A stretch of DNA of 63,037 bases, filler included, from Sluysia triapertura (lineage: Eukaryota), in assembly GCA_046118255.1 (NCBI GenBank). It is 4 parts of 4 records of this genome, joined end to end, with 100 filler letters (N's around TTAATTAATTAA, not from the genome) between each part and the next. Parts side by side here need not be neighbours in the genome. Positions count along the whole stretch, not along the records: positions 1 to 11,824 come from JBJNIA010167037.1; 3 more parts are not named here. One strand, given 5' to 3'. A model generated the notes under the pieces. The model searched no databases and had not been told where the DNA came from. It was given only the letters and a program-made list of their open reading frames with translations. A program made the translations under genes and the position numbers. Below are positions 4,798-4,861 of this stretch, in pieces (within the stretch, counting starts at the first letter, position 1; each line of letters begins with the position of its first letter).

Positions 4798-4861
4798 AAC
4801 CATCATCAATAGTGACTTGTAAATGAAAATAATGAATAAAGTGTCACTATTGATGATGGTT
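4798..4861. repeat. Terminal hairpin 1: 19-bp perfect inverted repeat AACCATCATCAATAGTGAC with 26-nt loop
   Basis: Seen directly: aaccatcatcaatagtgac (4798-4816) ... gtcactattgatgatggtt (4843-4861), about 200 bp upstream of the Rep-like ATG. Confidence 0.9.

Follow-up and report, generated by a model that had tools for sequence, protein, structure and literature searches.

Features of the locus

The window, the whole stretch of DNA analyzed here, comprises 63,037 nucleotides of the Sluysia triapertura assembly GCA_046118255.1 and has a GC content of ~23% (77% AT). Host genes within it are both spliced and unspliced, and an exon of a mitochondrial carrier was recognized among them. Three further coding features are:

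12142-12384: exon that looks like an Ariadne-type E3 ligase (weak Pfam match)
20317-20880: remnant of a piggyBac-type transposase (Pfam DDE_Tnp_1_7 and zinc finger)
31795-32727: intact-looking, intronless ORF of a lambda-crystallin-type dehydrogenase, strongly diverged (E 2e-52 against the mammalian protein)

The exact sequence of the dehydrogenase ORF is absent from the protein collection. The exon at 57388-57645 has no Pfam match and presumably resembles a calcium-channel alpha2-delta subunit.

Several repeats are also present. Copies of an AT-rich dispersed repeat at 8271-8847, 17507-17952, and 21760-22272 are 70-77% identical, and contig coverage in the public run described below is ~28,000 at 8327-8713; other high-coverage repeats lie at 974-1747 (~5,000) and at about 11641-11691 (~41,000). 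A decayed, coding-like repeat forms an inverted pair at 29066-29635 and 38047-38578 (68-71% identity). A perfect hairpin at 28356-28446 (15-bp arms, 38-nt loop), unrelated to the two treated below, resembles what we take to be the end of a pogo/Tigger-like MITE. The N-filled gaps around the TTAATTAATTAA linker at 11825-11924, 24592-24691, and 37576-37675 are artefacts and not repeats.

The features that concern us here are two hairpins, A and B, and the minus-strand ORFs that follow each of them, which we call cassettes A and B:

2563-2869: interval with the far end of cassette A, including a small GC hairpin (6 bp, role putative) at 2689-2701
2793-3541, minus strand: two further ORFs of 105 and 146 codons, origin not recognized, no detectable helicase
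3441-4025, minus strand: 194-codon ORF in the same frame as the GSK3 ORF after two stops; acidic low-complexity linker, then half an RRM
4119-4628, minus strand: 169-codon ORF of cassette A, first ATG at 4598, match to the GSK3 N-lobe
4638-4784, minus strand: inner flank of A with CCAAT boxes, putatively promoter-like, aligning to 40827-40976 (best-kept core 4707-4765)
4798-4861: hairpin A, the likely element end, with perfect 19-bp arms and a 26-nt loop
39398-40161, minus strand: additional cassette B ORFs (113 and 167 codons), no relative detected
40294-40845, minus strand: 183-codon ORF of cassette B, first ATG at 40794, no relative detected
40827-40976, minus strand: inner flank of B (core 40901-40957), the homologue of the inner flank of A
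41015-41074: hairpin B (perfect part 41015-41073), with perfect 17-bp arms and a 25-nt loop

The first ATG of the long minus-strand ORF lies 200 bp from hairpin A and 221 bp from hairpin B. Four of the five ORFs of at least 160 codons in the window are found just inside the two hairpins, and none arose in 300 shuffles of those regions. On its far side, cassette B is bounded by the decayed repeat of the inverted pair at 29066-29635 and 38047-38578. Just outside hairpin B, positions 41200-42050 contain broken coding-like frames on the minus strand with a strong strand bias (GC skew +0.49 across 41001-42000); these frames have no Pfam match and may belong to a decayed retroelement or to another cassette.

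Structure and conservation of the hairpins

The preliminary description of this DNA reported a ~58-bp hairpin at 4798-4861, repeated at 41015-41073 upstream of a different gene, and both points are borne out: the arms are perfect, and each hairpin precedes a different minus-strand ORF. DNA folding z-scores for the two hairpins range from -4.6 to -9.4, and for each of the four hairpin strands an equally good fold was reached by 0 of 200 shuffles. In 60 Markov shuffles of the window, comparable arms reached 14 bp at most. The arms are purely Watson-Crick on both strands with zero G-U pairs, and those of hairpin A have CC at the start and GG at the end. The reported identity of 16-bp arms is correct for the left arm (16 identical bases), but the right arm is identical over a longer stretch of 22 nt (4838-4859 = 41053-41074). 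The arm 16-mer occurs exactly four times in the window, always within hairpins A and B. The loops had been said to align still, including the letters 'aaagt'; these letters are part of the conserved arm, and the rest of the two loops shows no more likeness than chance (a score as high in 481 of 500 shuffles). Both copies have the same loop orientation (one form in 2/2 copies, no flip/flop), which is expected for any two copies of one element end.

It had further been proposed that selection on pairing or protein binding, and not recent duplication, keeps the arms alike. The proposal was right in that the arms are a sequence-specific cis-signal common to two different cassettes and not a recent duplication; since A and B differ by no compensatory change, the two copies cannot tell pairing from protein binding.

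Several smaller observations concern the surroundings of the arms. Imperfect pairing continues between bases next to the left arm of B and those on the far side of its right arm, so the arms may originally have measured ~26 bp. At the outer foot of this left arm (40999-41014), the start of the arm appears to have been duplicated internally. T runs 6-8 nt outside both hairpins are a weak sign in 77% AT DNA, and TAGTATTAC, found at 2752 and 38515, is present in the window about as often as composition predicts.

At the Rfam gathering score, no family of miRNAs or ribozymes matches the hairpins, the best miRNA match being a sub-threshold one to a plant family (30.9 bits against a cut-off of 70). 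The hairpin pattern had 0 matches in viral, metagenome, and prokaryote collections. The arm 16-mer was found in 101 stretches of IMG/VR, and all of the 80 listed are single matches.

The limit of homology distal to the hairpin, which the preliminary description had left to be defined, could be placed on one side. On the gene side, A and B are homologous over ~60 bp, or up to 150 bp under soft scoring, with an alignment score reached by 0 of 500 shuffles (soft) or 3 of 500 (strict). On the outer side there is no homology over 200 bp (167/500 and 368/500 shuffles score as well) or over 600 bp (111/500). A and B likewise lack homology further inside than the inner flank (194/500 shuffles), and their far ends are unalike (191/200 and 131/200 shuffles score as well). 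This one-sided homology, bounded by the outer foot of the hairpin, supports the hairpin as an element end. Within the inner flanks lie four of the six window occurrences of TGATTGG, and this CCAAT-rich segment is the predicted promoter of the cargo transcript.

A position ~200 bp upstream of ORFs and next to CCAAT boxes, together with arm and loop sizes like those of a pre-miRNA, would also suit a host regulatory palindrome or small-RNA hairpin that was spread by segmental duplication of a fast-evolving gene family. We regard this as quite improbable: similarity ends sharply at the hairpin, the miRNA matches stay below threshold, and the cargo, as described below, is a chimera of broken fragments.

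Host gene fragments in cassette A

Positions 4164-4511 contain a decayed GSK3 kinase N-lobe of 116 codons (phmmer against GSK3-beta, E 1.8e-12), in which the glycine loop is altered, the catalytic lobe is missing, and there is no intron-sized gap. The next ORF carries at ~3549-3695 the first half of an ELAV/Hu RRM1 (phmmer against HuD, E 1.1e-7). This match stops at a frameshift near 3540 and does not resume beyond it, and it ends at about what we take to be the conserved intron position of ELAV genes. The ELAV fragment points to a probable animal source. Pieces of two unrelated host genes, GSK3 and ELAV, joined in one orientation and one frame, support gene capture.

The last 750 bp of A and all B ORFs have no match in Pfam, PHROGs, PDB, or phages. 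Word-indexed protein searches with cassette A read through its stops and with the B ORF returned nothing; this type of search is weak and missed even the GSK3 piece. An Atlas search with the first ORF of A yielded only uninformative clusters, and exact look-ups of window ORFs found 0 of 3 and 0 of 6 in the protein collection. Two candidates in cassette A were rejected: 4119-4628 as an HUH Rep, the ORF being the GSK3 fragment, and 2793-3541 as an SF3 helicase, for which no match was found.

Cassette A is repeated

The locus is contained in a single public run and study (run X1), which may be the source of the assembly, and other copies of the cassette are visible only there. We aligned contigs of this run to positions 200-11800 at 80% likeness, so that the coverage data concern cassette A only. 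Long near-identical contigs at a depth of 14-25 are found on both sides of A. Among the 40 of 1165 differences listed, the number of variant contigs per site is 1 at 2562, 11 at 2869, 11 at 3897, 25 at 4337, 28 at 4478, 19 at 4759, 6 at 4906, and 5 at 4954. Binned coverage from 2135 to 5230 is 78, 491, 635, 839, 1352, 1984, 1304, and 363. Across hairpin A, 19 contigs with a coverage of 729 at 4759 give way to 6 contigs with a coverage of 126 at 4906, and 5-6 contigs run on past the hairpin, which is thus not the end of all copies. With distance from the hairpin side, coverage falls stepwise (1984, 1352, 839, 635, 491), as is expected of a fixed start and a variable stop. A contig of single-copy depth ends at 2687, and the 6-bp hairpin at 2689-2701, which has no counterpart in B, sits where single-copy coverage ends. 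Cassette A is thus likely to be present in tens of copies, with the reservation that the summed depth of assembled contigs does not equal copy number.

Likeness among the copies is 80-95%, and they are broken. Where cassette A has its first in-frame stop, 11 contigs making up 98% of summed depth have another letter, so that this stop is nearly private to the window copy; near 3540, an indel is found in 3 contigs that represent 40% of depth. No empty site was seen in the run. A contig joint of 1827-7025 was considered as an empty site and rejected, since only 26 AT-rich bases support it and an unbroken contig spans it.

A rough back-calculation from two bins gives a coverage of ~5,300 for the hairpin itself, compared with 1,000-2,000 for the GSK3 part; the hairpin value is interpolated between listed points and becomes 400-5,500 under other assumptions of flank depth. 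This hints that cassettes capped by the hairpin far outnumber those of type A, or that the hairpin also occurs alone. Many solo hairpins, which the preliminary description had named as the case that would make this an independent MITE, would agree with a hairpin coverage several times that of the cargo, yet A and B share an inner flank, unlike solo MITEs.

The same coverage bears on cut-and-paste transposition, in which the hairpin would belong to the terminal repeat of a Pack-type element with a lost or distant second end, or would be a very small MITE turned into the end of larger cargo elements. Many solo or differently loaded copies, the CC and GG at the ends of the arms of A, and the other MITE-like and piggyBac remnants in the window would all fit. 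Nevertheless, we found no inverted copy of the hairpin end on the far side of either cassette, the far ends being not mapped to the base, and no arm 13-mer with ≤2 mismatches near them; the only such sites are at 3917-3918, within an ORF, and at 38517-38519, within another repeat. There is no obvious target duplication at A or B and none common to both. Coverage falls gradually and does not rise again at the far end. These observations, with the common inner flank, make a cut-and-paste element rather unlikely.

Coverage that declines away from the hairpin can also be read as 5′ truncation of a plus-strand transcript, copied by a reverse transcriptase of a Penelope/Terminon-like element or by that of a LINE reading a 3′ stem-loop. 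The 116-codon GSK3 piece without an intron-sized gap may be in keeping with RNA copying. Against this, there is no poly(A) or common tail outside the hairpins, the arms are strictly Watson-Crick on both strands, and ribozymes and other Rfam families are absent at the gathering score; copying through RNA seems improbable to us.

Different gene cassettes at one inverted-repeat site, and a first in-frame stop that differs in most variant contigs, recall a domesticated cassette system like that of polydnaviruses, which would carry truncated host signaling genes and use the hairpin as a recombination or amplification site. Sites of this type are 30-200 nt long and have inverted symmetry, according to sections of PMC8549517. 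However, direct repeats and direct-repeat junctions were not found around A or B, nothing in the window is a pointer to a virus-derived system, and the broken copies resemble ageing transposons. Domestication of this kind has a low probability in our view.

Replication and transposition proteins

The preliminary description had suggested a check with a resurrected Rep and had favored the inverted termini of a linear genome over the single origin of a circular CRESS genome, with protein-primed replication as an alternative to rolling-hairpin replication. No Rep is detectable beside either copy. A profile of 9 natural CRESS-type Reps (a Rep-like ORF was present in 9 of the 19 small contigs examined) was searched against 1166 window ORFs and gave a best real E of 2.8, no better than that of reversed decoys, while it found 8 of 8 degraded controls at E 0.002 or better. 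Among 169 ORFs, Pfam has no match to a Rep, SF3 helicase, RepHel remnant, HUH domain, polymerase, terminal protein, or capsid, and neither Pfam nor PDB has one to NS1/Rep of the parvovirus type. In cassette B, a 341-residue read-through gave 0 matches at E 0.001 (full HMMER, 1.84 billion representatives), and a single-sequence fold of the ORF has a pLDDT of 37.6. Atlas weakly links the B ORF to D5-type helicase clusters (score 0.81, below the Atlas threshold; recognition 1872). This lead was not confirmed in profile comparisons, which were negative with a shallow profile (3-4 usable sequences) and no sensitivity control. A transposase or Rep-helicase partner for the hairpins was not found within the window.

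At the left end of parvoviruses, a hairpin, a promoter, and an ORF follow each other in that order, as they do here. One explanation of this layout would be a hairpin-ended or multipartite ssDNA virus, present as integrated segments or as defective genomes that have a common origin and promoter and have picked up host gene pieces; the B ORFs without recognized origin and the sub-threshold D5-type lead also speak for it. This origin is nonetheless improbable given the empty Rep profile, the negative D5-type comparisons, the lack of any viral match in Pfam, PHROGs, PDB, or the 1.84 billion representatives, and the absence of the hairpin pattern from three public collections. The TAxTATTAC nonamer is absent inside either hairpin, as had been noted before, and flip/flop forms are lacking in both copies.

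The case for adenovirus-like, protein-primed linear genome termini drew on the terminal motif of adenovirus ITRs. The motif is real, in that 11 bases of the arm match the terminal motif as given in part of PMC3569329. Its occurrence is at chance level, since CATCATCAATA arises in 22 of 200 window shuffles. The core-origin 10-mer that follows the terminal motif in adenoviruses does not occur in the window, and Pfam matched none of the 169 ORFs to a polymerase, terminal protein, or capsid. The arms also face each other over a 25-26-nt loop, the opposite of genome ends or joined ends, so that as viral termini they would enclose no genome other than this loop. Adenovirus-like linear termini and protein-primed replication are accordingly abandoned as an account of A and B, such an origin being extremely improbable, and an endogenous adenovirus gains no support from the hairpins.

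The hairpin as the probable end of a gene-capturing element

Taken together, we conclude with a probability of roughly 0.8 that the hairpin is the shared end of a repeated, cargo-carrying element. The mechanism is a more tentative matter. Rolling-circle elements would account for a fixed start with a variable stop, for the capture of several genes, and for the lack of a second inverted end, and a Helentron/Helitron2-like mechanism, with the hairpin as the start end of a non-autonomous gene-capturing family, is a possibility to which we give somewhat less than even odds. In such a mechanism, a transposase encoded elsewhere in the animal genome would act on the non-autonomous cassettes and bind the arm sequence of the hairpin. 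A nick would be placed just outside the hairpin and one strand peeled off, possibly through circles, in a transposition direction running from the hairpin into the cassette. Strand transfer would stop at variable downstream signals, sweeping in neighboring host DNA, so that each sub-family would come to have its own cargo behind a common end. Through its predicted promoter activity, the inner flank would drive the chimeric cargo transcript.

A bolder reading is that the cassettes represent an undescribed hairpin-capped class that possesses a promoter and assembles chimeric genes out of host signaling and RNA-binding domains. The GSK3-ELAV frame, kept open and expressed across tens of copies, would then give a kinase-dead, dominant-acting protein family serving the animal or the element. 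We consider this doubtful.

Gene capture by transposons has been documented in a few animal groups. Here, a short and easily searched end signal tags a family in which pieces of GSK3 and ELAV would have been put together behind a promoter-like segment and then multiplied. The 22-base arm can serve as a probe to gather all cassettes, to find the missing transposase, and to list the captured genes. If the ends are not of the Helentron type, they would be a new end architecture for a gene-shuffling element, and if the chimeric frame is under selection, new genes would have been born inside a transposon. The literature searched, which consisted of listings, abstracts, and selected passages, contained no published description of this hairpin. 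Gene-capturing transposons are already known; what looks new is the structure of the end and the chimera of GSK3 and ELAV.

Comparison with known systems

The adenovirus inverted terminal repeat shares the 11-base motif with the arms and differs from A and B in orientation, core origin, long terminal repeat, and viral genes. CRESS DNA viruses have a loop nonamer and an HUH Rep with an SF3 helicase, neither of which was found here. Polydnavirus segments, in the portions of PMC8549517 that describe them, are flanked by direct repeat junctions and form circles in particles; no flanking direct repeat was found at A or B.

Replitrons have an HUH-only transposase and short direct repeats at their ends (as excerpted from PMC10288648). 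At A and B, there is no HUH match and there are no direct repeats. Pack-type TIR transposons and MITEs are likewise non-autonomous and carry host fragments with promoter-like boxes at the end. Pack-MULEs, for example, carry host fragments and have promoter-like boxes in their end sequence. However, these elements have inverted repeats at both ends and a target duplication, whereas A and B have neither a second inverted end nor a duplication.

Canonical Helitrons such as Helibat and Helraiser resemble cassette A in carrying several host gene fragments behind a promoter, with a fixed start and a variable stop. Bat Helitrons join fragments of several genes, intronless ones included (passages of PMC4224331), and in Helraiser the left end is essential and the right end can be bypassed (as stated in part of PMC4778049). 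The ends are different. Canonical elements (HLE1) start with TC at the 5′ end and have a short 3′ hairpin 10-12 nt before CTRR, whereas A and B have a long hairpin upstream of the cargo and no TC start, and CTRR was not found at 10-12 nt from either long hairpin in either orientation. Helitron families are also reported to have, as a rule, a common right end and a variable left one (PMC11417382); the shared end of A and B would be the left.

The closest likeness is to Helentrons, or Helitron2 (HLE2; DINE-1, HINE, FoHeliNA), some features of which are missing from the window. In HLE2 elements, the subterminal repeat recurs in inverted form 38-60 bp from the opposite end; A and B lack such a copy, which could be lost in truncated copies. 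These elements also have a short palindrome 8-35 bp from the 3′ end, for which the 6-bp hairpin of A is a candidate and B has nothing alike. They insert in TT without target duplication, of which the T runs outside hairpins A and B are a weak sign, and they have an autonomous Rep-helicase partner with the same ends, which is not present in this window. The HLE2 arms are by definition 11-17 nt long; those of A and B are longer (17-22 bp), with the perfect arms 25-26 nt apart. With no far-end repeat, no transposase in the window, and no empty site, we do not class the element as a Helentron member. There are similarities as well. The 5′ subterminal repeat of DINE-1/Helentrons has an inverted repeat 3-22 bp away, and gene fragments are captured (sections of PMC4067079); Helitron2 has a hairpin at each end (a passage of PMC5148889). 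These elements and the cassettes have in common a hairpin at one end, which in A and B would likewise arise from a subterminal repeat and a nearby inverted repeat, no terminal inverted pair, gene fragments as cargo, and short common end sequences with differing interiors. Our working interpretation, held at a little below an even chance, is that among known systems the element works most like the Helentron type.
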